DNA of 64,000 bases, taken from positions 17,947 through 81,946 of the forward strand of contig JBAYMJ010000002.1 in the NCBI GenBank assembly GCA_041663565.1, read 5' to 3'. Positions 1 to 21,697 of this stretch are shown in pieces. Positions within the stretch are counted from its first letter, which is position 1, and every line of letters begins with the position of its first letter. The position numbers and the translations under genes were made by a program. The notes under the pieces were generated by a model that was not told where the DNA came from, searched no databases, and saw only the letters and a list, made by a program, of their open reading frames with translations. The DNA is from Candidatus Micrarchaeia archaeon. GTDB taxonomy: Archaea; Micrarchaeota; Micrarchaeia; Norongarragalinales; CAINOH01.

Positions 1-336
1 AAACCCCGCCAACCACTTACCCAAAACGCTCATTTTGCGATGGGTAACTCCCCATCAGACTAGGTGCGGACTTTCCTTAAATAGATAATGAAAACCAAAA
101 AAATGCGAAAAAAGCGAAAAGAATTTACTTGAAAAACAACTGTTTGCGCGAAAAATAAGGCACGATAGAACCCCGTTTTTCAAAATAAGCATAATTTTCC
201 GCCCATTTTGAAAAAACAGGCAGGAAGATGGAAACTGAAAAAATACTGGAAGTGAGGTTTGCAAGGAGTAAAAAGCGGCAGAATACGAAATTAACGAAAA
301 ATATGGTTTATTTTGCCAAAACAAGCCATAAAACAG

Positions 337-1338
337 CTATTTCTTTCCAATCAAGGACATCTGAGCCAGCAAAGCCTCAAGTTGGATGGTTTCGTCCGCA
401 CCCATAACCATGCGGAAGTCGTATTCGCCAATCTTATCAACCAGCGCGACTTTCTGCTCGTCCGGGATTGGAAGCCCGGTGACTTCGCGGTAAATCGAAA
501 TCAGGACGTCTTCGCCAGCCAAGCCGTACTTGCCCATAATCTCCCAAAGCATCTTGCGGGCAGTTGAGAAGTCGCCCTTGACCGCAGTTGTGACCATTGT
601 TGCGACTTCTTTTGGAGTTGCGCGCGAGGCCACTTTGAAAATCGATTGCGCGGTGACTTTTGCGGAAAGCGAGCAGGCGCCCTGCAGCACGTTTGCGGCC
701 TTTCTTGCATCGCCTTCGGACACCGCGACTACCGCATCCCGAACGTCCTTTTCCAGGTGCAGGTTCTCGTGCTTTGCTATGTTGTCAACAATCTTTCCGA
801 TGTGCTCGTCGGATAGCGGAAGGAAGCGGAACACGGCGCACCTGCTCTGGATGGGCTCGATTACCCTGCTTGAATAGTTGCAGCTGAGTATGAAGCGCGT
901 GTTCTCCGAGTAGCGCTCCATTGTTCGCCTGAGCGCCTGCTGTGCCTCTGCGGTGAGCGCGTCGGCCTCGTCGAGGAAGATGATTTTGAAAGGCACGCTT
1001 GCAAGGGGTATTGAGCGCGCGAAGTCCTTGATTTTCCCGCGCACGATGTCGATGCCGCGCTCGTCGCTTGCGTTGAGCTCGAGGAAGCACTCCCTGTAGG
1101 CCTCGCCGTAAAGCTCGTGCGCAAGAGCAAGCACGCAGGTGGTCTTGCCTATCCCCGCGCGCCCCGCAAAGAGCATGTGCGGCATCTCCTTGGCGTGCAC
1201 GTAGGACTCGAGCCTGCTGACTATGTGCTCCTGGCCGACGACTTCGGACAGCTTCTTGGGCCGGTACTTCTCAATCCACGGCTCGTAATCCGCCTTGGTC
1301 CTTTCAGCCTTCGCCGGTTCCGCTTCCTTGAGAGTCAT
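337..1338 (-). CDS. rfcS: Replication factor C small subunit (clamp-loader AAA+ ATPase)
   Basis: Translation has WIEKYRPKKLSEVVGQ, Walker A GRAGIGKTT, Walker B IIFLDEADALT and the SRC motif QSRCAVFRF. ATG at 1336-1338 preferred over the upstream TTG of ORF 337..1353. Confidence 0.93.
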   Translation of the reverse strand: MTLKEAEPAKAERTKADYEPWIEKYRPKKLSEVVGQEHIVSRLESYVHAKEMPHMLFAGRAGIGKTTCVLALAHELYGEAYRECFLELNASDERGIDIVRGKIKDFARSIPLASVPFKIIFLDEADALTAEAQQALRRTMERYSENTRFILSCNYSSRVIEPIQSRCAVFRFLPLSDEHIGKIVDNIAKHENLHLEKDVRDAVVAVSEGDARKAANVLQGACSLSAKVTAQSIFKVASRATPKEVATMVTTAVKGDFSTARKMLWEIMGKYGLAGEDVLISIYREVTGLPIPDEQKVALVDKIGEYDFRMVMGADETIQLEALLAQMSLIGKK

Positions 1339-1462
1339 TTTCCTGCACCGCAATGAACGTAAAATCAGACAGAACTGTTTTCGCTCGGAAAGTTAATAAT
1401 CCGAGCGTGACAAATGCAATCGCCGCCCAGAGGCGGCAACTTGAACCAAAGGTGATTTGCTT

Positions 1463-1813
1463 ATGCAGGCTACTGACCCGGACGTGCTCATCTCAACTAC
1501 CGAGGAAATCTCAGGATTCCGGACCAAAAAGTACGTCGGCGTGGTGTGGGCGTCAAGCGCGCGCACCCTGGACACCGCAAGCGAGATTGGCGCGATGCTG
1601 AAAAGCATCGGCGGCGGCGACCTCCCGGCTTTCCGCAAGTTGCTCAACGAAGGCAGGCACTCGGTGCTGCACGAGATTGCCGCAACCGCAAAGGCACGAG
1701 GCGCAAACGCAATCGTGGGCGTAAGGATGGAAAGCGCAAGCATCGTCGGAGGCACAATAGACGTCTATGCCTATGGGACCGCAGTTGTTGTCGAGAAGGA
1801 AACCAAGAAGTAG
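1463..1813 (+). CDS. YbjQ/UPF0145 family protein
   Basis: ISTTEEISGF...GANAIVGVRMESASIVGGTIDVYAYGTAVV matches the YbjQ-type pentameric domain pattern. ATG at 1463 lies 8 nt after an AAAGGTGA Shine-Dalgarno-like site. Confidence 0.8.
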   Translation: MQATDPDVLISTTEEISGFRTKKYVGVVWASSARTLDTASEIGAMLKSIGGGDLPAFRKLLNEGRHSVLHEIAATAKARGANAIVGVRMESASIVGGTIDVYAYGTAVVVEKETKK

Positions 1814-1868
1814 GCCGTTGGGAAAATTAGAAAAAATCCTGAAAAAAGAAGATATGGAAAAAGGGAAA

Positions 1869-2108
1869 CTAAGCCGCCTTGTAGGCGGTCCTCTTTGAGG
1901 GCGTGCCCCAGCAGGTCTTGCAGATTACGTGGCGCTCGCCCTTCACGCGCCTGCGCGAGAGCTTGCTTGACTTCTCGCACGCGTGGCAGACCTTGCGCTT
2001 GCACTGGCCGCACTCCTCGAGAAGATGGGCCTCGCGGCCGCACTTTTCGCACTTTTTGGAAGAAACTGGACGGACTATACGAATACACCCTTGTAACACA
2101 TTATTCAT
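1869..2108 (-). CDS. Small double zinc-ribbon protein, function unknown
   Basis: 79-aa ORF with four CxxC pairs (CEKC, CGQC, CHAC, CKTC). It is not overlapped by a better-supported gene. Confidence 0.5.
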   Translation of the reverse strand: MNNVLQGCIRIVRPVSSKKCEKCGREAHLLEECGQCKRKVCHACEKSSKLSRRRVKGERHVICKTCWGTPSKRTAYKAA

Positions 2109-2213
2109 TGACGGCCTAATGCCTTCAAAATGAGTATATTGTCTTTTGCGAAGAAAATTAATAAAGTTGCTTAAGAGGGCAAAATTGCCCGAAAAGCCGG
2201 TTGGACTGTTAAA

Positions 2214-3578
2214 ATGGCAAAAAACATTGCTGGGGCGGGAAAAAAGAAAAAAAACGGGCCAGATGTGACCGCCACTTCAAAGGTCTTTTTCCTCACATAC
2301 GGCTGCACGTTCAACGCCGCTGACACGGACGCATTGAAGGCCGCAGTTGCGAAAAAGTACGGGATTGCGGAGTCGGAAGCCGAGGCAGGCGTCGTGGTGA
2401 TGAACACCTGCTCGGTGAAGGACTCGACGCAGGAAAAGATACTCTTCAAGGCAAAGAAACTGGACGCCCAAGGAAAGAAGCTGGTGGTTACCGGCTGCCT
2501 TGCACAGGTGTCGCCCGAACTGGTCGAAAAGGCGGTTCCGGGTGCAAGCATTGTCGGAGTGTGGTCGAACGCCAAGATGGTGGATGCGATAGGGTGGGTG
2601 TTGGAAGGAAAAAAAGTCGTCCAAACCAAAAGAACCTCAATCCTTCCTTTCAACGTCACGGTTGACGGCATCTTTGCCCGCGTGCAAATCAGCCGCGGGT
2701 GCCTCGGAAGCTGCACCTACTGCTCGACAAAGATTGCGAGGGGCAGCCTGCAGAGCTTTCCGCAGGAAGAAATCGTGGCTGCAGTCGAGTCCGCGGTCCG
2801 GCAGGGAGCTAAGGAAATCCAGCTTACAAGCCAGGACACGGCCTGCTACGGTTTCGACTTTGGGGGCAACAGGAAGGGAGGCAGGAAAGGAGTAACGAAG
2901 AAACCCGAACATACCCTCGCAACGCTCCTTGAAAGCATATGCAATATTCCCGGCCGCTTCCGCGTGCGCATCGGGATGGGAAACCCGGAGCACTTCTGGA
3001 AGATAAGGAAGGAGCTTGCAAAGGCAATCTGCTCAACGGACAAGGTTTACCGTTTCCTCCACATACCTGTGCAGAGCGGAAGCGACCCCGTGCTTGCGGC
3101 GATGAACCGAGGATACAGGGCATCCGACTATGCAAGGCTCGTGGAATTCTTCCGCAAGAAAATACCAGACCTGACGGTTGAGACCGACGTCATCGTGGGC
3201 TTTCCCACCGAGACCGGGAAGGACTTTGAAGAGACTGTTGCGCTCGTTGAAAAAACGCGGCCGCAGATTACGAACATATCAAAATACAGCGCCAGGCCCA
3301 AGACCATTGCCGCAAGAATGAAACAAGTCGGCCGCAAGACCGTCAACGAGCGCAGCACCAAGATGAACGTGCTGTGCCGCAGTATTGCGCTGGAAGAAAA
3401 CGGGAAGCTGGCCGGAAAAACCTACGACGTGCTGGTCACGGAAAGGAAGGCCGGAGGATTTTCCGCAAGGGCGCCGAACTACAAGACCGTGCTCCTTGCA
3501 AGGGGCGCCATTGGCTCATTTATTACCGTCCGGACTACTGGTTACGGGCAATGCTACCTGAAGGGAAAAAGGCTGTGA
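2214..3578 (+). CDS. Radical SAM methylthiotransferase, MiaB/MtaB (CDKAL1-like) family
   Basis: N-terminal UPF0004 pattern FFLTYGCTFNAADTD, radical SAM cluster motif GCLGSCTYCSTKIARG and a C-terminal TRAM-like region. Confidence 0.88.
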   Translation: MAKNIAGAGKKKKNGPDVTATSKVFFLTYGCTFNAADTDALKAAVAKKYGIAESEAEAGVVVMNTCSVKDSTQEKILFKAKKLDAQGKKLVVTGCLAQVSPELVEKAVPGASIVGVWSNAKMVDAIGWVLEGKKVVQTKRTSILPFNVTVDGIFARVQISRGCLGSCTYCSTKIARGSLQSFPQEEIVAAVESAVRQGAKEIQLTSQDTACYGFDFGGNRKGGRKGVTKKPEHTLATLLESICNIPGRFRVRIGMGNPEHFWKIRKELAKAICSTDKVYRFLHIPVQSGSDPVLAAMNRGYRASDYARLVEFFRKKIPDLTVETDVIVGFPTETGKDFEETVALVEKTRPQITNISKYSARPKTIAARMKQVGRKTVNERSTKMNVLCRSIALEENGKLAGKTYDVLVTERKAGGFSARAPNYKTVLLARGAIGSFITVRTTGYGQCYLKGKRL

Positions 3579-3586
3579 ACAGTCGA

Positions 3587-4252
3587 ATGGAAAAGACGCA
3601 AGCGGGCAACAAGAAAAAGGAAAACCCGGCCACTATGAGAAAAATTGTCGCAGTAGTTGCGGCAATCGTAGTCCTCCTGGTTTTTGCGACTATCTTTTTC
3701 CTTGGAATCCCGACGGACAGCCATCGGGGAGTGGGTGAAACGCCCAATTCGGCACTGCAGCCAACGCCTTCAGCAAAAGCCCATGCGGCCTGCGTCACTT
3801 CGATTGAGGAGCGGACCGTTCGCGGAAGCTCGATGGAAGGGCTTCTTTCCGACGGCGACACCGTGACGGTCCAGTTTGGCTACTACGGCTGCAACGAGCC
3901 GCAAAGGGGTGAAGTTGCGCTCGTGCACTTTTCAGGCGACGCAAACCCGCTCATCAAGGTCATCAAGGCGGTGCCAGAAGACTCGTTCTCCCTTTCGCAG
4001 GCCTCCTGCGGCTGGAACATAATGGTCAACGGCAATGCATTGCAAAACTCCGAGGCGAAGGACTACTGCATAGGTTACTCCGGCTACCGGATGCTTTCGC
4101 TCTACGTGCAAAGCTACAACGGCATAATCCCGCAGGGCGCCTACCTCGTGCTCGGCAACCTCGTGCAGGGCTCCACCGACAGCACGCGCTTCGGCCTGAC
4201 AAGCAGGGGCAGCCTGCTGGGAAAGGTGGGAATGCCCGCCGACCCCGCATAG
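3587..4252 (+). CDS. Signal peptidase I-like serine peptidase (S26; bacterial-type Ser/Lys boxes)
   Basis: N-terminal TM helix, then GSSMEG (box B-like), LIKVIKAVPED (box D-like, Lys) and GNLVQGSTDSTRFG (box E-like). ATG at 3587 avoids overlap with the preceding gene; the 3374 start is rejected. Confidence 0.7.
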   Translation: MEKTQAGNKKKENPATMRKIVAVVAAIVVLLVFATIFFLGIPTDSHRGVGETPNSALQPTPSAKAHAACVTSIEERTVRGSSMEGLLSDGDTVTVQFGYYGCNEPQRGEVALVHFSGDANPLIKVIKAVPEDSFSLSQASCGWNIMVNGNALQNSEAKDYCIGYSGYRMLSLYVQSYNGIIPQGAYLVLGNLVQGSTDSTRFGLTSRGSLLGKVGMPADPA

Positions 4253-4328
4253 CTCACGGCTCGTGGAAGCTATTGGTTTTAAATCCGCAAAGCAAGAAGT
4301 CTTTATCTAATTTCAAGGGCGAATTGGT

Positions 4329-5072
4329 ATGAAGAGGATTGCGGACATTTTCAACAAGACGTTCGAGGCATACGGCGCGAACTTCAAGACGATTTCGTTC
4401 TTCTCGATACCGTTTTTGATAGCGTTCCCGGTAGCGCTGTTCCTGTCCAACTACGCCGCGATGGGCTCCATATTCATGCGCCTTGACAGCATCAAGTGGG
4501 ACATGACCCCGCTCGACCTGGGCATCGTCATCCTCCTGCCAATCGTATCGATGCTTTTGTTTTCCTTTGCGCTCGTCGCAATCAACATGATAATCACGAG
4601 CCAAAGGTCGATGAACAAGATTGCGTTCTACGAGATGGAAAAAATCGAGCAGCGCACCTACCACCTGTTCGAGGTGTTCCTTGCCGCGTTCGCGCTCACG
4701 TTCATCGCTGACGTCGTGCTTTACCAGTATGGGCTGCACCAGACCGTCGGAGCGCTGGTTGCAGCACTCGTCGCGCTCGCAATATTGTTCGTGCCGCAGG
4801 CCATCGTAATCGACGGCTTCCGTGGATGGACCGCGATAAGGAAGAGCGTCTCGACTGTGACGCGCCGCTTTTCCTACGTAATCCTGTTCCTAGTAGTGTC
4901 CGCGGTGCTCATCCTGCTCAACGACATCATCTTCCTCAACATCTCAGCCGACCCCGGGATATTCGCCTACGGCCGCTACGCGGCCATCGTCATCAACGCG
5001 CTCGTCATCCTGCCGTTCCTTGAGGTGTTCAAGGTGCAGGTCTATCTCAGCAAGTACACGATACTCAACTAG
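4329..5072 (+). CDS. Polytopic membrane protein, unknown function
   Basis: 247-aa ORF with about 6 hydrophobic segments. No motif recognised. Confidence 0.55.
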   Translation: MKRIADIFNKTFEAYGANFKTISFFSIPFLIAFPVALFLSNYAAMGSIFMRLDSIKWDMTPLDLGIVILLPIVSMLLFSFALVAINMIITSQRSMNKIAFYEMEKIEQRTYHLFEVFLAAFALTFIADVVLYQYGLHQTVGALVAALVALAILFVPQAIVIDGFRGWTAIRKSVSTVTRRFSYVILFLVVSAVLILLNDIIFLNISADPGIFAYGRYAAIVINALVILPFLEVFKVQVYLSKYTILN

Positions 5073-14769: not shown

Positions 14770-15222
14770 ATGCATATGACACACCGTGGCCAGGGCGCAT
14801 TCGAATACCTGCTGATGCTTGGCGGCGTAGTGCTAGTGGCGGTCATGGTCATCCTCATAATGCAGGGTTCTGCGCAGGGCGCGGACAACGCCCTGCTGCA
14901 GAACCAGAACCAATACAACAGCATAGTGGCCGGCGGGGTGAAGAACACGCTCACGAACGCGCCGCTTTCGTTCATACTCTCGTGCACCGCAGGCTCTGCC
15001 ACCACCTCGTACATAAGCAACAACTCGAACTGCGACGCCGCGTGCAAGGCGGTCGGCTACACCAACGGCACAACGGTGTGCTACACGAGCGGCTGCGCCG
15101 CATCCTGCAACGCCTGCACGACCATAACTTGCAACGGCATCGCGTGGAACGTCATCACGGGGTGCAGCGCGCCTGGAAGCTGCAACATGGACTCGTGCAA
15201 CTGCACGCGCACCGCCGGCTAG
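14770..15222 (+). CDS. Class III signal peptide (type IV pilin-like) protein with a Cys-rich head
   Basis: N-terminus MHMTHRG/QGAFEYLLMLGGVVLVAVMVIL (K/R-G cleavage context plus hydrophobic helix). The C-terminal 80 aa contain 14 Cys. Confidence 0.8.
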   Translation: MHMTHRGQGAFEYLLMLGGVVLVAVMVILIMQGSAQGADNALLQNQNQYNSIVAGGVKNTLTNAPLSFILSCTAGSATTSYISNNSNCDAACKAVGYTNGTTVCYTSGCAASCNACTTITCNGIAWNVITGCSAPGSCNMDSCNCTRTAG

Positions 15223-15280: not shown

Positions 15281-15850
15281 ATGAAAGGCCAGACGTCACT
15301 TGAGTACCTGCTGATACTTGCAGGGACCGTGATGCTCGTGCTCCTCGTCTCGACCATAGTTAACTCCGCCATGGCGCCCGGGCTGGAGAACGCGAGAAAC
15401 AACAGCACCGCCCAGCTTTGGAACGCGTCAAACGACTGGGGGACGCCGACAATCCCGTCAACCACTGCCACCCCGACGCCCACGGTGGGCCCGATTGAGT
15501 TCTTCTTCCAGGTGCAGGACAACGGCGGCAGCAGCGTCGCATTGTTCCTGCCTACGGGCGACGTCGTCCTCAAGACCGGCTGCTACGCGGGGGCTGCGGG
15601 AAGCTGCGCCAACCCGCCGGATGGGTCGTTTGCGGTGAGGGACCCTGCGGGCGTCTCGCACGCGTTCATCAACCCGTCCGGAAGCCTCTGCATCGAGGAC
15701 GCAAACTGCAACGGGAACGACGCGAGCTGCAACAGCCCGCCCGACGACTCGTTTACGACGCAGAACTCCGCAGGCACTACTGTATCATACATAAGCCCGG
15801 CTGGCGCGCTTTGCCTTACGGGCAGCCTTGTCCAGTATGGGAACCCCTAG
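15281..15850 (+). CDS. Class III signal peptide (pilin-like) protein with an internally repeated head
   Basis: MKG/QTSLEYLLILAGTVMLVLLV and a Thr/Pro linker. Two clear repeats of about 40 aa follow (C..SC..PPD.SF.....AG......I.P.G.LC), preceded by a weaker third copy. Confidence 0.8.
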   Translation: MKGQTSLEYLLILAGTVMLVLLVSTIVNSAMAPGLENARNNSTAQLWNASNDWGTPTIPSTTATPTPTVGPIEFFFQVQDNGGSSVALFLPTGDVVLKTGCYAGAAGSCANPPDGSFAVRDPAGVSHAFINPSGSLCIEDANCNGNDASCNSPPDDSFTTQNSAGTTVSYISPAGALCLTGSLVQYGNP

Positions 15851-15858
15851 ATGATTTG

Positions 15859-17421
15859 ATGGACCGCTTCAGGATTTCGTTGACTGTCGCACTTTTCCTG
15901 TGCCTGCTGCAAGGCGCCTGCGCGGGAAACCTCAGCGTGAAGAGCGGACAGCTCAACATGACAGGCAACCTCTACGTCGGGCCCAACTATCTCTTCGTCA
16001 ACTCAACTTCGGGACTCGTCGGAATCGGCACAACTGCACCGGGAACGATTCTGGAAATCTCGTCAACAAACAACCCGCTAGCCGCGGGGTCCGCATCTAT
16101 ACTCCTGGCCGGCGACGTCAACAAGGAGCGCGTGGCGATACGCTCAAGCCAGGCTGCGGTATTCATTGCGGCCGGCCACCGGGGCACCGTTACGTCCCCG
16201 TCGGCCTTGCTTGCGGGCGACGCGATGGGTTACTACCAGCTCGGGGGGTACACGGGCACGGGATACACGCGAGCTGCGTGGATTACCGGATATGCAGAAG
16301 AGAACTGGAACGCAACGAACTGGGGAGGCAACCTCATATTCTCCACCATATCCCCCGGGACCACGTCCATCACCGAGAAGGTGAGGATAACCGGTGCGGG
16401 CAACGTCGGCATCGGCACGACGAACCCGGCAGCAAAGCTCCATGTCAATGGGGACGTGCGCATTACTGGGGATTCGTTTGATTCCATATTCATAAACCAG
16501 GGCGGGGCGTTGTATATCAGCGCTCCAAGTTCAAAGAAGATATATTTCGACACGACTGGAGTCGGACCGAAGGTTTCCTTTGATATGACTAGTGGCAACG
16601 TCGGCATCGGGACAACCGCACCGGCATCAAAGCTTCAGGTCTCCGGAGGCGAAATCCAGACCGGGACCAGCGGCACTGCCTGCTCGGGTTCCAATGCCGG
16701 CGCGATTCGTTGGAGCGGCTCGCACTTCTACGGGTGCACCGGCAGCTTCTGGATCCAGCTGGACTCGGGCGCGTACTCGTCATGCAACGAGATAAAGGCA
16801 GCAAGCCCTGGAGCCGGTGACGGCGCGTACACCATCTATCCGTCGGGCGTTGCAATCAACGTCTATTGCGACATGACCACCAACGGCGGCGGGTGGACAA
16901 TCGTAACTGCGCAGTCCGGAGCGGGGCAATACGGCCTTGCCGACGACACGGAAGCGACTGGCAACCCGTTGTCATACCAGGCGTACAACCTGAACCTGAT
17001 TAAAAAGATGTACATAAGCTCGGTCTCGTCGGAGTCGCTGATAAAGCGCAGCACCGGCGCCTGGATAAAGGCAAGCCACGCGCTGTTCGACAACAACCTT
17101 GTGGGCATGGGCAACCAGCACCCCCATTGGCAAGTCACTGTGACCGCCAGCAATGGTGCAACTGCTGCAAACTGCCAGATGGGCTACTCGAACTTCTATA
17201 ATTCGAATGGCGGCGACTTCGGCATAACCACCTCGGGGGTCGTCTTCGACCACCACAACCCCAGCACGTATTACCACTTGAACGCCGGCTGCGCAAGCAT
17301 GTACTTTTACAATTATGGCACTACATACAACGTGAACACCGCCTTGGGAGATTGGCCGGTGACGAATGCCTGCGTTCCCAGCGGGACCGAACTGGGCAGC
17401 TGGTACGCCGCGATGAGATGA
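15859..17421 (+). CDS. Secreted stalk protein with a C-terminal fibrinogen-related-domain-like head (paralog 1)
   Basis: Leader [40 protein letters not shown] and [16 protein letters not shown] motifs, neck [24 protein letters not shown], then CNEIKAASPGAGDGAYTIYPSGVAINVYCDMTTNGGGWTIV. Start set by paralog alignment. Confidence 0.85.
   Translation: MDRFRISLTVALFLCLLQGACAGNLSVKSGQLNMTGNLYVGPNYLFVNSTSGLVGIGTTAPGTILEISSTNNPLAAGSASILLAGDVNKERVAIRSSQAAVFIAAGHRGTVTSPSALLAGDAMGYYQLGGYTGTGYTRAAWITGYAEENWNATNWGGNLIFSTISPGTTSITEKVRITGAGNVGIGTTNPAAKLHVNGDVRITGDSFDSIFINQGGALYISAPSSKKIYFDTTGVGPKVSFDMTSGNVGIGTTAPASKLQVSGGEIQTGTSGTACSGSNAGAIRWSGSHFYGCTGSFWIQLDSGAYSSCNEIKAASPGAGDGAYTIYPSGVAINVYCDMTTNGGGWTIVTAQSGAGQYGLADDTEATGNPLSYQAYNLNLIKKMYISSVSSESLIKRSTGAWIKASHALFDNNLVGMGNQHPHWQVTVTASNGATAANCQMGYSNFYNSNGGDFGITTSGVVFDHHNPSTYYHLNAGCASMYFYNYGTTYNVNTALGDWPVTNACVPSGTELGSWYAAMR
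16594..16640 (+). repeat. 47-nt cassette identical to 18132..18178 (mid-gene, paralog 1 vs paralog 2)
   Basis: Direct comparison: ggcaacgtcggcatcgggacaaccgcaccggcatcaaagcttcaggt is identical in both genes, while the flanks diverge. Confidence 0.9.
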
Positions 17422-17501
17422 TTGGAATCTCGGAACGTTGACTTTAAGGAGAATTGTTGCCGGACAAATGAAACGACTCTAGGAAAATGGACATGCGATT
17501 T

Positions 17502-18860
17502 ATGGACCGCTTCAGGATTTCATTGGCCGCCGCGCTTTTCCTGTGCCTAGTGCAGGCCGCGTGCGCGGGCAACCTAAGCGTGAAGAGCGGACAGCTCAAC
17601 ATGACTGGCAACCTCTACGTGGGCGCTTCTGGGTCCGCGCTCTTTGTAAACTCAACGTCGGGTTACGTTGGAATTGGGACGACGAACCCAATCCGCGCAT
17701 TGCATATCTATGGCAACCCAGTTGTCGAACTCATACTTGAGGATGGCGCGGCAAATGCCGACTACCGGAAATGGAATTTCGTTGTCAACGGCGGCGCGGG
17801 GTCGAACAGCAGCTTTTACCTCCGCCAGCTCAACGACGCTGGAACTGCTGGCGCAGTCCCGTTCATGGTCAGCGGCGCAGGCAACGTCGGCATAGGCGCC
17901 AGCCCAATCAGCAAGCTGGAAGTCGCCGCATTGAACAGTTCCGTGGCAATCGGCGGTTACCTGGGGAACCCGCCGACATACCAGACAGGAATCCAGTTCC
18001 TCAACTACGGGGTATATCACGTCGGCTTGCGCTACGACGGCCAGGGCAACCTGATTTATGAAAGTGCGGGAAACAGCGTAAACCCGATGCTGTGGTATAA
18101 TGGCCAGCCCGCCAACTTCCTAGTGAGGAACGGCAACGTCGGCATCGGGACAACCGCACCGGCATCAAAGCTTCAGGTTTCCGGTGGCGAAATCCAGACG
18201 GGAACAAGCGGAGCGTCCTGCACGAGCGCCAACACCGGTGCAATACGCTGGGATGGCTCGTATTTCCTCGGGTGCACCGGCTCCGGGTGGGCGCGACTGA
18301 GCTACGGCACGTATTCCGCCTGCAATGCCATCAAGGTCGCCACGCCAAGCGCGGCCAACGGCACGTATACGGTATACATCAACAACACGGCAACACAGGT
18401 CTACTGCGACATGACCTCAGATGGCGGCGGGTGGACGCTGATTGTCGGCATCGGCCCGGACAACAACCACGACACCGCAAGCGCAGTCACCCCGGAGAAC
18501 CTCGTCTCGGCAACAGGCAAGGGCAAGTTCAGCGACGCCTGGATAAACCTCCTGCGGACCGCCCCGGGGACAGAGGGGATAGTAAGGCTGAACTGCGGCA
18601 CCTCAGTTGATTATTTCGACTACAGGACAACCGCGTGGCAGGCCACGTATACCGCCAACCCGAACGGGGTCGGCTGGGACGTGTACACCCAGCCGTGGGG
18701 GACCGCGCCGTACAGCGGCGGAGGGGCGAGCTACCCGAACCAGCCCGGGCCGTGGGCGTACTCGGTATGGGGCCAGAACACGATTTATGGCTATAGCGGG
18801 TGGACCGGCTGCTACACCGGTTCCGCAACTGGCGGCCCCGGCACGGTTTGGATGAGATAA
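17502..18860 (+). CDS. Secreted stalk protein with a C-terminal fibrinogen-related-domain-like head (paralog 2)
   Basis: [94 protein letters not shown] and CNAIKVATPSAANGTYTVYINNTATQVYCDMTSDGGGWTLIV. In-frame upstream ATGs at 17487 and 17493 are possible alternatives. Confidence 0.85.
   Translation: MDRFRISLAAALFLCLVQAACAGNLSVKSGQLNMTGNLYVGASGSALFVNSTSGYVGIGTTNPIRALHIYGNPVVELILEDGAANADYRKWNFVVNGGAGSNSSFYLRQLNDAGTAGAVPFMVSGAGNVGIGASPISKLEVAALNSSVAIGGYLGNPPTYQTGIQFLNYGVYHVGLRYDGQGNLIYESAGNSVNPMLWYNGQPANFLVRNGNVGIGTTAPASKLQVSGGEIQTGTSGASCTSANTGAIRWDGSYFLGCTGSGWARLSYGTYSACNAIKVATPSAANGTYTVYINNTATQVYCDMTSDGGGWTLIVGIGPDNNHDTASAVTPENLVSATGKGKFSDAWINLLRTAPGTEGIVRLNCGTSVDYFDYRTTAWQATYTANPNGVGWDVYTQPWGTAPYSGGGASYPNQPGPWAYSVWGQNTIYGYSGWTGCYTGSATGGPGTVWMR
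17511..17569 (+). repeat. 59-nt 5' cassette identical to 18902..18960 (leader region, paralog 2 vs paralog 3)
   Basis: ttcaggatttcattggccgccgcgcttttcctgtgcctagtgcaggccgcgtgcgcggg is identical in both copies. Paralogs 1 and 4 carry diverged versions at 15859.. and 20357.. Confidence 0.9.
18132..18178 (+). repeat. 47-nt cassette identical to 16594..16640
   Basis: See the partner copy; verified base by base. Confidence 0.9.
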
Positions 18861-18892
18861 ATATAATGATGTTTTGAGCCAGAGATGATTTC

Positions 18893-20320
18893 GTGAACAG
18901 CTTCAGGATTTCATTGGCCGCCGCGCTTTTCCTGTGCCTAGTGCAGGCCGCGTGCGCGGGAAACCTCAGCGTGAAAAGCGGCCAGCTCAACATGACAGGA
19001 AACCTCTACGTCGGCGCATCGGGCAACGCACTTTTTGTCAATACCGCATCGGGACTTGTGGGCATCGGAACGACAAGCCCTTCGCAGAGGCTCGACGTGA
19101 CTGGAACGGTCAATGCGTACGCTTTCACGGTCAACGGCTCGGCCTTCAGCACCAGCCAGTGGACGACTGCGGGCTCTAACATATACTATTCCTCAGGCAA
19201 CGTCGGCATCGGCACGACGAACCCGGCAACGGTGTTGCACATCTCCGGCCCGAACGAGGGAACCTCGACGTACTACTCCCAACTGAGGGTCGATGGGACC
19301 GGAGCCTACCCTTGGAACATTGCAGGAATTTCGTTGAACCCCAACGGGGCAGTCCAATCCCACCTTCGTTTTCTCGAGAATGGCGTAGTCAAGTTCCAAA
19401 TACGATACAACAACGGAAACACGCAGGATAGCAAACTGAAATTTTACAGCTTCATCACAGGTACGGACATGGCGACGTTTGATGCGACAAGCGGCTACGT
19501 CGGCATCGGGACAACCAGCCCCGCTTCCAAACTGCAAGTCTCCGGTGGGGAAGTCCAGGTGGGAAACAGCGGCGCCTCGTGCACAAGCGCCAACGCGGGC
19601 GCAATCCGCTGGAGCGGCACGCACTTCTATGGTTGCACAGGCAGCGGCTGGGCGCAGCTGGACTCCGCGGTATACCCGTCGTGCGGCGCCATAAAGACTG
19701 CAAACCCGAGCCTTTCCGACGGGGTATACACGATATACCCTTCGGGCATCGCCATGCAGGTTTACTGCGACATGACCACGCTGGGAGGGGGGTGGACGCT
19801 CGTTCTTCTCAACAGCCAGTATTCCGTCCCTCCGAAGCCGACCTGGACAAACGTCACAACCGGGAACGTCATTACCGGCACGTTCGGCTCAACCCTTGAC
19901 AGCGCGTTCGACCAGTTCCTTGGCGTCGCATATTGGAACACGCTGGGAACGCAGATGCGGGTCGAGGCGGGCAGCTCGTCCGCGTCGATTTCGCACCGGG
20001 CGCGCTACAACTTCACGCTCAACTCGGCGAACAACTATGCCCTGACCATGACGAACGCAATCCTTGACATAGGCTCGACCTACCCGGGAATGGCCACGTA
20101 CCACGCTGCGGGCAATTATCAGCTCTCGACCTTTGACGCGGACCACGACGTGTACTCCGCAAACTGCGCCAATTCCTACGGAAACACCGCCTGGTGGTAT
20201 GGAGCCTGCTGGGATGGGAACTTCTGGGGCGGCGGAGAATCGGGAAGCCACCAGAACAAGCCATTCTGGACCGGCAGCAGCGCGGACTACTACGACTGGG
20301 GCGCAATCTGGATACGGTAA
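18893..20320 (+). CDS. Secreted stalk protein with a complete fibrinogen C-terminal-like domain (paralog 3)
   Basis: GTG start; leader [23 protein letters not shown]. FReD hallmarks [41 protein letters not shown] and the distal [37 protein letters not shown]. Confidence 0.88.
18902..18960 (+). repeat. 59-nt 5' cassette identical to 17511..17569
   Basis: See the partner copy; verified base by base. Confidence 0.9.
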
Positions 20321-20356
20321 ATTAAACAGCAGTTCATCTAAACTAGTAACGATATC

Positions 20357-21697
20357 ATGGACCGGTTCAGATTCTCATTGTCTGTCACTCTCTTCTTGTG
20401 CATCGTGCAGGCCTCTTGCGCGGGCAACCTCAGCGTGAAGAGCGGACAGCTCAACATGACAGGAAACCTCTACGTGGGTCCTGCCGGAAACGCGCTTTTT
20501 GTAAACTCCACGTCGGGACTTGTGGGCATCGGCACCGCAAGCCCCTCGGCACAACTGCACGTTGTGGGCAACGCAGTCATCACCGGCAGCATCGGAATCG
20601 GGACAACCAACTCCCTTGCGAAAGAACACATCCTTTTGGGGTCTGCAGGGACTACGCCAAACTTCACCATCGCACCTTCCTTGATTTTGGAGCATTCCGG
20701 GTACGACGGCCAACTGCAATTTTTAGCCCCGTCAACAAGGGCATCTTACATCATGTTCGGCGACGAGCGGAATTATGCCCGTGGAAGCATAGTCTACGAC
20801 CATCGCGCCGGTTCGGAAATGCTGGCGCTTTCCAGCCAGAACGGAAGCATAACAATACTTGCAGGAGGCAACGTCGGCATAGGAACGACGAGTCCGGCGT
20901 CAAAGCTGCAAGTCACGGGAGGCGAAATCCAAACTGGCAACAGCTCCGCAGCCTGCTCAAGCGCCAATGCAGGAGCAATCCGCTGGACGGGCGTGGTGTT
21001 CCAGGGGTGCACGGGCACGAACTGGACGACGTTCAGTTTCGGCGGGCAGGACGGGTCGACCCAGCAGCGGGCGGGCATAAGCTGCAAGGCGATAATCAAC
21101 GCCGGCTTCTCGAAGGGCAACGGCAACTATTGGGTCGACCCCGACGGCGGGGACACGGTCAACGCGTTCCAGGCATATTGCGACATGACAACGGACGGCG
21201 GAGGCTGGACGAAAGTCTATCACGGGACACCGGACCAGGCGTCCACGACGATTGCGTACATTACGGGGACCGCGCCCCTAGTCACCACGTCGTCGACGAT
21301 GATGTTCGCGTTCTTTGACGAGACTACGAACGCCACGTCAAGCGCGTGGAAGTTCCAGACGCCGTCCGCATTCACCACCAACACGCCGATGGCGAACGTC
21401 CAATGCGGGTACGTGACAATCACTGCCACGAGGATAAGCGACAGCCTGACGGTCAGCAACGTCCTCCGGTACGGGTATGGCAGCTTCGGCAGCAGGTGCG
21501 ACGAAGGATGCAGCAGCACCTGGGGGCAAATCTGCCTGAAAAGCACCTCGGCCCAGGGAACCGCCGGCGGGTACGCCGATTTCCCGATGTACACGTCTTT
21601 TGCGTGGGCGGGATACGACAATTGCGCTAGGTCTGATGAGACGTATTCTACTACGCAGTGCCCGACGACCAAGAGGTTCGTGATATTCGTAAGATGA
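20357..21697 (+). CDS. Secreted stalk protein with a C-terminal fibrinogen-related-domain-like head (paralog 4)
   Basis: [94 protein letters not shown] and CKAIINAGFSKGNGNYWVDPDGGDTVNAFQAYCDMTTDGGGWTKV. Confidence 0.82.
   Translation: MDRFRFSLSVTLFLCIVQASCAGNLSVKSGQLNMTGNLYVGPAGNALFVNSTSGLVGIGTASPSAQLHVVGNAVITGSIGIGTTNSLAKEHILLGSAGTTPNFTIAPSLILEHSGYDGQLQFLAPSTRASYIMFGDERNYARGSIVYDHRAGSEMLALSSQNGSITILAGGNVGIGTTSPASKLQVTGGEIQTGNSSAACSSANAGAIRWTGVVFQGCTGTNWTTFSFGGQDGSTQQRAGISCKAIINAGFSKGNGNYWVDPDGGDTVNAFQAYCDMTTDGGGWTKVYHGTPDQASTTIAYITGTAPLVTTSSTMMFAFFDETTNATSSAWKFQTPSAFTTNTPMANVQCGYVTITATRISDSLTVSNVLRYGYGSFGSRCDEGCSSTWGQICLKSTSAQGTAGGYADFPMYTSFAWAGYDNCARSDETYSTTQCPTTKRFVIFVR

Follow-up and report, generated by a model that had tools for sequence, protein, structure and literature searches.

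Bdellovibrio bacteriovorus carries 21 mosaic adhesive trimer (MAT) fibres, divided into S74 and non-S74 subgroups, one end being conserved for retention while the opposite end is diversified (Caulton et al. 2024, PMC10769870). MAT fibres combine an invariant N-terminal domain with trimeric beta-prism stalks and diverse tips and act in prey recognition; the fibre is 75% identical between two members, which diverge beyond it, and tip swapping has been suggested (PMC10769870). We analysed a 64,000-nt stretch of DNA (the window) from a Candidatus Micrarchaeia archaeon, corresponding to positions 17947-81946 of contig C2 of a 1.28-Mb metagenome-assembled genome (MAG; 46 contigs, ~81% complete). The genome is archaeal, small and of the DPANN type, as indicated by class III signal peptides of pilin-like genes, by relatives of 0.7-1.6 Mb and by a homologue close to the FReD (fibrinogen-related) head that bears the label Aenigmatarchaeota. 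The window contains a tandem array of four genes, p1-p4, for predicted fibres with FReD-like heads. The reading that we favour, and consider likely, is that old fibre-gene paralogs have undergone occasional ectopic recombination or gene conversion, as an evolutionary process rather than a programmed high-frequency switch.

The array genes resemble those of MAT fibres in several respects. They belong to a multigene secreted family (~17 members here versus 21 in Bdellovibrio) with a conserved N-terminal base, a repeat-built stalk, diverse C-terminal tips and both S74 and non-S74 members, and they share a homologous stalk repeat, (S/T)GN(V/L)G(I/L)GTxxPxxxL(H/E)V. In a phmmer search against the PDB, the p2 leader and stalk hit Bd2133 of B. 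bacteriovorus (8ond, E=7e-8), with the repeat motif aligned three times; p3 also matches 8ond, weakly. Unlike the MAT genes, the family belongs to an archaeon (with Sec signal peptides and class III pilin genes nearby), has FReD-like tips, which are not mentioned in PMC10769870, and includes a member targeted by a diversity-generating retroelement (DGR). PMC10769870 argues from structures, whereas the archaeal family, predicted to form surface fibres, is described here by nucleotide-level patches with contrasts in synonymous divergence (dS). To the MAT logic this family adds FReD tips, a DGR target and direct evidence, at the nucleotide level, of module exchange.

Further systems are comparable in part. 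Phage tail-fibre genes evolve as mosaics of modules by recombination at conserved linker sequences. The archaeal genes are alike in that modules pass between diverged fibre genes, with junctions in short conserved sequences, and receptor-binding tips would be re-assorted; they differ in being cellular chromosomal genes that exchange among paralogs, not among co-infecting viruses. Antigenic variation by gene conversion (Neisseria pilE/pilS, Borrelia vlsE, Mycoplasma genitalium MgPa/MgPar, Treponema tprK) uses one expression site and many silent truncated donors, with high-frequency switching. The array shares with these systems patchwise, non-reciprocal transfer among paralogous surface-protein genes, with conserved flanks as the homology, but every copy is complete, no silent cassettes were found in the genome, and synonymous sites are saturated in the background. 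Gene conversion in patches between paralogous adhesin genes is a familiar process in a new setting, and no new mechanism is involved. DPANN archaea possess DGRs with C-type-lectin-fold targets (PMC5006420). The same fibre family includes a complete DGR, whose target on contig C44 has an FGE-sulfatase C-terminus; unlike such targets, p1-p4 have no partner resembling a template repeat (TR), and their mosaicism is recombinational. As in fibrinogen-related lectins (ficolins, tachylectin-5A, intelectins) and the bacterial NF040941 "fibrinogen-like YCDxxxxGGGW domain" proteins, the heads begin with the NF040941 motif, and p3 aligns with the FReDs of ficolin-3 and tenascin over ~190 residues; in contrast to the lectins, these heads are carried by a prokaryotic fibre instead of a collagen or coiled-coil stalk.

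Archaea of the DPANN type presumably live in attachment to host cells, and little is known about how they recognise these. The fibre family offers concrete candidates for host-attachment proteins and a testable picture, in which a 1.3-Mb genome would generate binding diversity by recombination and by a DGR acting on one member.

Old paralogs with shared patches

The four genes are co-directional, with spacers of 32-80 nt whose sequence is unrelated between genes and an A/T-rich TATA-like element ~30 nt upstream of the starts of p2, p3 and p4. They are four complete, independently startable genes (coordinates are collected in Table 1). Each encodes, in order, a Sec-type signal peptide, a conserved leader, a stalk that differs strongly in length and sequence among the four, a conserved neck (...C...NAGAIRW.G..F.GC.G..W) and a head that opens with a YCDM..GGGWT motif.

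We estimated dS and nonsynonymous divergence (dN) on the conserved leader and neck by the Nei-Gojobori method. The background dS is 0.8-1.6 or saturated, dN is 0.1-0.38 and dN/dS is ~0.1-0.25; over all pairs, identical residues use the same codon in 55% of cases (45% expected at saturation). Since synonymous sites are near saturation, the likeness of leader and neck is kept by purifying selection and not by ongoing homogenization. Hence, p1-p4 are old paralogs whose leader and neck are mostly held by purifying selection on the protein. Within these regions, patches of much lower divergence are found. For p2-p3, dS is 0.11 in leader codons 1-25, and the next 40 codons are saturated; for p1-p2, it is 0.35 at the start of the neck and 1.6 in the rest. 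Synonymous divergence of the patches is 5-10 times below that of adjacent, equally conserved peptide. Among variable sites, p2 and p3 have 19 of 24 in common in the first leader block and only 9 of 39 in the next, where p3-p4 is the closest pair; for p1 and p2 at the neck start, the count is 17 of 19. The patches lie within the genes, bordered by diverged sequence on either side, and the upstream intergenic DNA is unrelated, which argues for non-reciprocal conversion and not unequal crossing-over. Internal tracts of low dS and partners that change along the gene, the marks of ectopic gene conversion, are both seen here.

The original prediction for this locus held that different pairs share different cassettes as a result of ongoing gene conversion, and it named equal synonymous divergence inside and outside the cassettes as the outcome that would speak against it. 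The partner does differ by patch, and synonymous sites in the cassettes are less diverged than elsewhere, which supports a recombinational origin. Overall, the prediction holds in part. The near-saturated background does not agree with homogenization that is "ongoing".

All the identical runs that had been quoted proved exact on re-check. The p2-p3 run given as 59 nt is identical as described and 61 nt long, with the 59-nt stretch inside it, whereas the 47-nt p1-p2 run and the 33-nt p1-p3 run have the lengths originally given. Shorter exact matches include a 29-mer common to p1, p2 and p4 (15934 = 17577 = 20432) and a 29-nt run of p3 and p4 (18983 = 20447). The longest run of each pair was evaluated under two null models: a simulation in which the amino-acid alignment is kept and codons are set as same or different according to per-amino-acid rates of the family, and an amino-acid-stratified permutation of same-codon status over the identical-residue codons. 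The runs of p2-p3 (simulation, P-value < 2e-4; permutation, P-value 0.0003-0.0007) and p1-p2 (P-values 0.001 and 0.006, respectively) hold after correction for six pairs. P-values are intermediate for p1-p3 (0.011 and 0.016) and p1-p4 (0.007 and 0.017-0.018), while p2-p4 and p3-p4 (both 0.04 in the simulation) have no significant run excess under permutation. Long runs are no general property of such genes: in a tandem FReD pair of another organism (Logan SRR14092352; 2-946 and 1013-2170), the longest exact run is 17 nt. In that pair the N-terminal part and neck are conserved (56% amino-acid identity, 220 residues) and the heads are diverged; its contigs from three samples break at one common upstream point.

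A genome-wide fibre family

A motif scan of the genome revealed ~20 open reading frames (ORFs) with GxVGIGT repeats, ~17 of which carry the same Sec leader. Members consist of a signal peptide, the conserved leader and stalk modules of variable number, with a GxVGIGTTxP motif bounding each; the FReD genes and one or more further members have the Cys-containing neck. FReD heads are found in p1-p4 and, weakly, in one C22 gene. Other heads are Peptidase_S74 intramolecular chaperone domains (C39, C42, C32+C37, two on C4, one on C3; E=8e-18), Gly_rich_2 (two C3 genes; E=4e-11) and an FGE-sulfatase domain of C-type-lectin fold (the C44 gene; E=6e-11). The products are predicted to be Sec-exported surface fibres and are probably trimeric.

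The array genes have their longest similarities outside the array, to other family members. The stalk module that p2 shares with the C44 gene includes exact runs of 26, 54, 64 and 48 nt and has a dS of 0.21 versus 1.4-3.0 in its flanks, with 34 identical codons in a run (P-value < 1e-4). The tract shared by p4 and a Gly-rich-headed C3 gene includes a 95-nt exact run (20648-20742), with a dS of 0.25 versus 1.1 to saturation in the flanks and 31 identical codons in a run (P-value < 1e-4). When the genes were painted by nearest relative in a 90-nt sliding window, each array gene appeared as a patchwork; along p2, the partners are p3, p4, nothing, C44, p1, p3/p1, and nothing in the head. The C44-like tract of p2 extends from the GNVGIG motif at 17880 to that at 18132, after which the partner is p1. 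The C3-like tract of p4 starts at a GSIGIGTT motif (~20585), and its identity falls at a GNVGIGTT motif (20867). Since tract ends coincide with motifs, the coordinates suggest that motif-coding strings behave as crossover points. The stalk, originally thought to be constant, turned out to be the most mosaic part, with its nearest relatives on other contigs. Elsewhere in the family, the C16 and C42 genes are 96% identical over 476 nt of leader, two C3 genes are 87% identical over 365 nt, and S74 modules are 80-87% identical between genes whose stalks otherwise differ.

We suggest the following scenario for the linked pairs (p2-p3, p1-p2, p2 with the C44 gene, p4 with the C3 gene), whose tracts have their borders on codon-biased motif strings. 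Patches of ~60-400 nt would arise by occasional ectopic (non-allelic) homologous recombination or gene conversion, with ~20-25-nt motif strings and the conserved leader and neck serving as islands of homology. Over evolutionary time, stalk modules would be exchanged and bases re-paired with heads, and a diversified repertoire of host-attachment fibres would result. That exchange acts mainly on leader, stalk and neck segments of the genome-wide family is well supported.

Several points weigh against this scenario. The 33-nt and 38-nt runs are marginal and not significant after the six-pair correction. Classical tests are weak on four saturated array sequences, and a quartet-pattern autocorrelation similar to the pairwise homoplasy index gave a weak signal only (108 informative sites, P-value 0.03-0.3); 2+2 patterns in four saturated sequences carry little information, and we therefore relied on the run-length and dS tests. 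Linkage across the shared runs comes from the MAG assembly and cannot be confirmed by Logan contigs built at k=31. Finally, no orthologous array was found among 40 relatives of the same genus, family and order (genomes of 0.7-1.6 Mb; one weak match only). A contig scan of other genomes for FReD arrays returned distant bacterial FReD proteins only.

The genome has a single RVT_1 match, a reverse transcriptase (RT) encoded on C44 downstream of the fibre gene whose stalk module recurs in p2. The DGR is complete, and all 13 mismatches between its TR and its variable region (VR) are at TR adenines. As a cause of head divergence in p1-p4, a DGR was rejected, since the genome contains no TR-like sequence for these heads. 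Hypervariation in the fibre family proceeds via the retroelement on a sibling gene and not via cassettes in the FReD array. Further VR-like sequences resembling the C44 TR/VR occur at C3:16410-16525, C31:10892-11009 and C43:2202-2241, the last a 40-nt fragment; in the C3 and C31 copies, TR adenines account for only half of the mismatches, hence neither is an obvious target of this TR at present. The VR 3' end and downstream sequence recur as a 50-nt copy at C44:127-176, and C44 1-123 overlaps the end of C43 exactly.

Metagenome data and alternative explanations

Population data were Logan contigs (k=31; rare variants drop out) from a landfill run (X1; depth ~30), which is probably the source of the MAG, and a groundwater run of a different study (X2; depth ~3). 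X1 unitigs have zero differences from the window and break at the shared runs. X2 pieces with 0-1 differences cover 16399-16640 (both p1 motif runs) and 18446-18960 (p2 head, intergenic sequence and p3 leader); the same runs being present in X2, the patches predate the split of the two populations. One X2 contig of 1106 nt joins p1 (15738-15977) to p4 (20426-20742) and then to the 3' portion of the Gly-rich fibre gene on C3, with junctions in the 38-nt and 95-nt shared runs, both longer than k-1. Given a depth of 3.7, k=31 and uncovered competing branches, a graph chimera is the simplest reading, and this contig, probably an artefact, is not used as evidence. Real shuffling would yield molecules like it. 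Apart from this chimera, X1 and X2 contigs carry the same arrangement. In X1, the C44 interior (215-4352; fibre gene and DGR) has a depth of 10.6-15.3, while the C44 ends (1-123 and 4323-4445) continue into contigs of depth 27-30. At about half the depth of its flanks, the locus is heterogeneous in the X1 population; apparently, either the C44 segment is carried by only about half of the population or an alternative haplotype of it exists. At window position 16590, 4 nt upstream of the 47-nt run, X1 (depth 13 of ~27) and X2 contigs have C versus T, a synonymous change from ACT to ACC; this is either a polymorphism or a consensus difference adjoining the conversion patch.

The alternative that survives best extends the favoured scenario to the present. 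Here, the codon-frozen GxVGIGTT string (~50 genome sites), the leader and the neck would be built-in joints, shuffling would be going on now, and the DGR would form the second of two tiers. The half-depth C44 locus in X1 and the p1-p4-C3 contig in X2 might then be snapshots of shuffling. If true, a host-dependent archaeon would combine module exchange with retroelement hypermutation across ~17 fibre genes. We consider this possible but unlikely.

A quite improbable explanation is that no recombination occurred and that the runs reflect purifying selection on the peptide together with motif codon bias, or nucleotide-level selection on the mRNA. Motif codons are indeed highly biased (AAC 32/32, GGC 26/32, GTC 25/32). 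The consensus coding string of GNVGIGT, GGCAACGTCGGCATCGGCACG, is found in 5 of the 32 motif copies in the genome, as a 21-mer common to five genes, and makes up the first 21-25 nt of the 33-nt run, much of which is explained by this bias. The same-codon frequency (0.55 overall versus 0.45 at saturation) and the two in-array pairs of six that have no run excess also fit. Moreover, the GNVGIGTT-coding string draws many contigs of other organisms at >=85% identity in all three metagenomes, with depth spikes of 150-330, and nucleotide-level conservation of the motif extends far beyond this genome. Stretches of at least 30 nt are shared by only 3 of 496 motif-copy pairs, p1-p3 and p1-p2 being two of the three. 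Selection and codon bias do not account for pair-specific patches, in which, for the same peptide, p2 equals p3 while p1 and p4 differ, or for the minority leucine codon CTA in the 61-nt signal-peptide run. The 277-nt and 407-nt tracts, at dS 0.2-0.25 between saturated flanks, and the amino-acid-stratified permutation, which is still significant, likewise speak against it.

The heads bear on another explanation, put forward in the original prediction, in which frequent directed conversion shuffles variable heads onto a constant leader, stalk and neck as programmed, cassette-type surface variation. All four heads score above the cut-offs of PF00147 (22 bits) and NF040941 (30 bits; heads 55-64 bits). 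Only p3 is a full canonical FReD (ficolin-3, E=7e-11, residues 264-455), with the DxDxD...NCA...WWY..C block of the ligand/Ca-binding P subdomain visible in its sequence. PF00147 covers only profile positions ~5-46 of 221 in p2 and p4 and 13-151 in p1; in these three heads the first FReD subdomain matches, and the rest is unrecognisable by sequence. An AlphaFold2 monomer model of p1, built on a 4-sequence alignment, has a mean pLDDT (predicted local distance difference test) of 33. No nucleotide similarity was found among the four heads beyond the GGGWT region or between them and the rest of the genome. Hence, no recent head exchange is visible, and the proposed shuffling of heads has left no nucleotide trace in the genome.

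Programmed cassettes would fit the mosaic, pair-specific patches, the X2 contig joined exactly at the 38-nt and 95-nt runs and the half-depth C44 interior, by which at least one family locus is heterogeneous. The X2 contig, however, has the depth and the missing branches under which graph chimeras form, and the same runs and local linkages are present in the second metagenome. All 26 genome matches to p3 are open frames of 384-921 aa with no stops; array genes and other family matches are long open frames with signal peptides, and no silent, truncated or promoterless donor cassettes were found among genome-wide matches of the array genes. In place of the one expression locus with silent donors of pilE/pilS, all four genes have start codons and signal peptides. 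Constant regions have a dS of 0.8 to saturation, so that homogenization is rare, the heads have no nucleotide-level donor in the genome, and no site-specific recombinase was found among the genes flanking the array. We therefore regard a programmed system as very unlikely.

On long time scales, heads do move between scaffolds, as the p3-type head is found on pilin, Gly-rich and fibre scaffolds. It is 66-71% identical in amino acids to 277-aa proteins of other organisms, where it is fused to a class III pilin N-terminus, and 55% identical to a head on a Gly-rich scaffold; one close homologue is labelled Aenigmatarchaeota. Identity of p3 to its tandem neighbours is 41-49% over the whole protein, mostly in leader and neck, with the heads far less alike. 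The N-terminus of the pilin-like gene at 14770-15222 (RGQGAFEYLLMLGGVVLVAV..QGSAQGADNAL) is nearly the same as that of the 277-aa pilin-FReD proteins.

There is little room for an assembly or binning artefact, with MAG contigs chimeric at repeats or C44 derived from another strain. Contigs break at the shared runs, several family genes are at contig ends, the MAG is incomplete and fragmented, and the C44 interior has a depth of 10-15 versus ~28-30 for the genome. The shared runs, however, exist whichever way their flanks join. X1 depth is ~50 on the shared 38-nt and 95-nt nodes (50.6 on the 38-nt node) versus 26-30 elsewhere, and this doubling identifies the repeats as real copies and not collapsed assembly; paralog-specific positions on each side have about full depth. 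Both C44 ends run into full-depth contigs of the genome, and X2 pieces match the local linkages with 0-1 differences. Least credible of all is a model without conversion, in which positive selection after recent partial duplications made the sequence outside the patches diverge very fast: the proteins differ extremely in heads and stalks, as binding surfaces under diversifying selection would, but synonymous and not only replacement sites are saturated right outside the patches, and in every gene each patch would need another partner.

Repeats of the fibre family are among the main causes of MAG fragmentation. C16 and C42 both end just upstream of their fibre genes with the 96%-identical first 476 nt, and the end of C32 and the start of C37, which overlap by 123 identical nt, carry two halves of one S74-type fibre gene.

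Features and surroundings of the array

Table 1. Coordinates of the array genes, shared tracts and retroelement components (window positions unless a contig is named)
Feature	Position	Strand	Remarks
p1	15859..17421	+	ORF; PF00147 27.8 bits; NF040941 61 bits; FReD-like head; long unique stalk
p2	17502..18860	+	ORF; PF00147 24.4 bits; architecture as p1; alternative upstream ATG 17487
p3	18893..20320	+	ORF, GTG start; PF00147 59.9 bits, profile positions 14-201 of 221
p4	20357..21697	+	ORF; PF00147 23.0 bits; architecture as p1; head matches FReD/COLFI at first ~45 residues only
Head of p1	16900..17421	+	
Head of p2	18440-18860	+	
Head of p3	19800-20320	+	
Head of p4	21100-21697	+	
61-nt run, p2 copy	17509..17569	+	= 18900-18960; signal-peptide part of leader; conversion patch
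61-nt run, p3 copy	18900..18960	+	exact match to p2 17509-17569
47-nt run, p1 copy	16594..16640	+	= 18132-18178; start of neck
47-nt run, p2 copy	18132..18178	+	closest relative of p2 changes from C44 gene to p1 within motif here
33-nt run, p1 = p3	16399..16431	+	= 19196-19228; marginal
38-nt run, p1 = p4	15928..15965	+	= 20426-20463; leader; 29-nt core also in p2 at 17577
p2 stalk module	17878..18154	+	93.1% over 277 nt to C44 fibre gene (C44:3281-3557, minus)
p4 stalk module and start of neck	20581..20987	+	85.3% over 407 nt to Gly-rich-headed C3 gene (~C3:34310-34716)
Spike sites of motif-coding string	16384-16450, 18129-18180, 19196-19230, 20866-20915		contig depth, three metagenomes
Complete DGR	C44 130-4266	minus	target, Avd-like ORFs, TR, VR, RT
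DGR target fibre gene	C44 2506-4266	minus	FGE-sulfatase C-terminus
VR	C44:2511-2634		124 nt
TR	C44:1427-1550		124 nt
Avd-like ORFs	C44 1954-2382 and 1608-1949	minus	one bAvd-like, second weaker
RT	C44 130-1635	minus	RVT_1

The neighbours of the array are NurA, PTH2 and pilin-like genes with class III signal peptides. A gene for a NurA-domain nuclease (window 13572 to ~14700, minus strand) lies directly upstream of the adhesin island. NurA acts in the resection of double-strand break ends during archaeal homologous recombination; its adjacency to the island is probably coincidental. The listed 491-aa NurA ORF overlaps the pilin gene, hence its true start is probably further in.

The leaders of p1-p4 contain two or three N-glycosylation sequons, NLS, NMT and NST (window 15928-16020 and the equivalent positions in p2-p4), with the third missing in p3. 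Family members outside the array have NAT and NST at equivalent places in the leader. Conservation of these sequons suggests that the base domain of the fibres is glycosylated.

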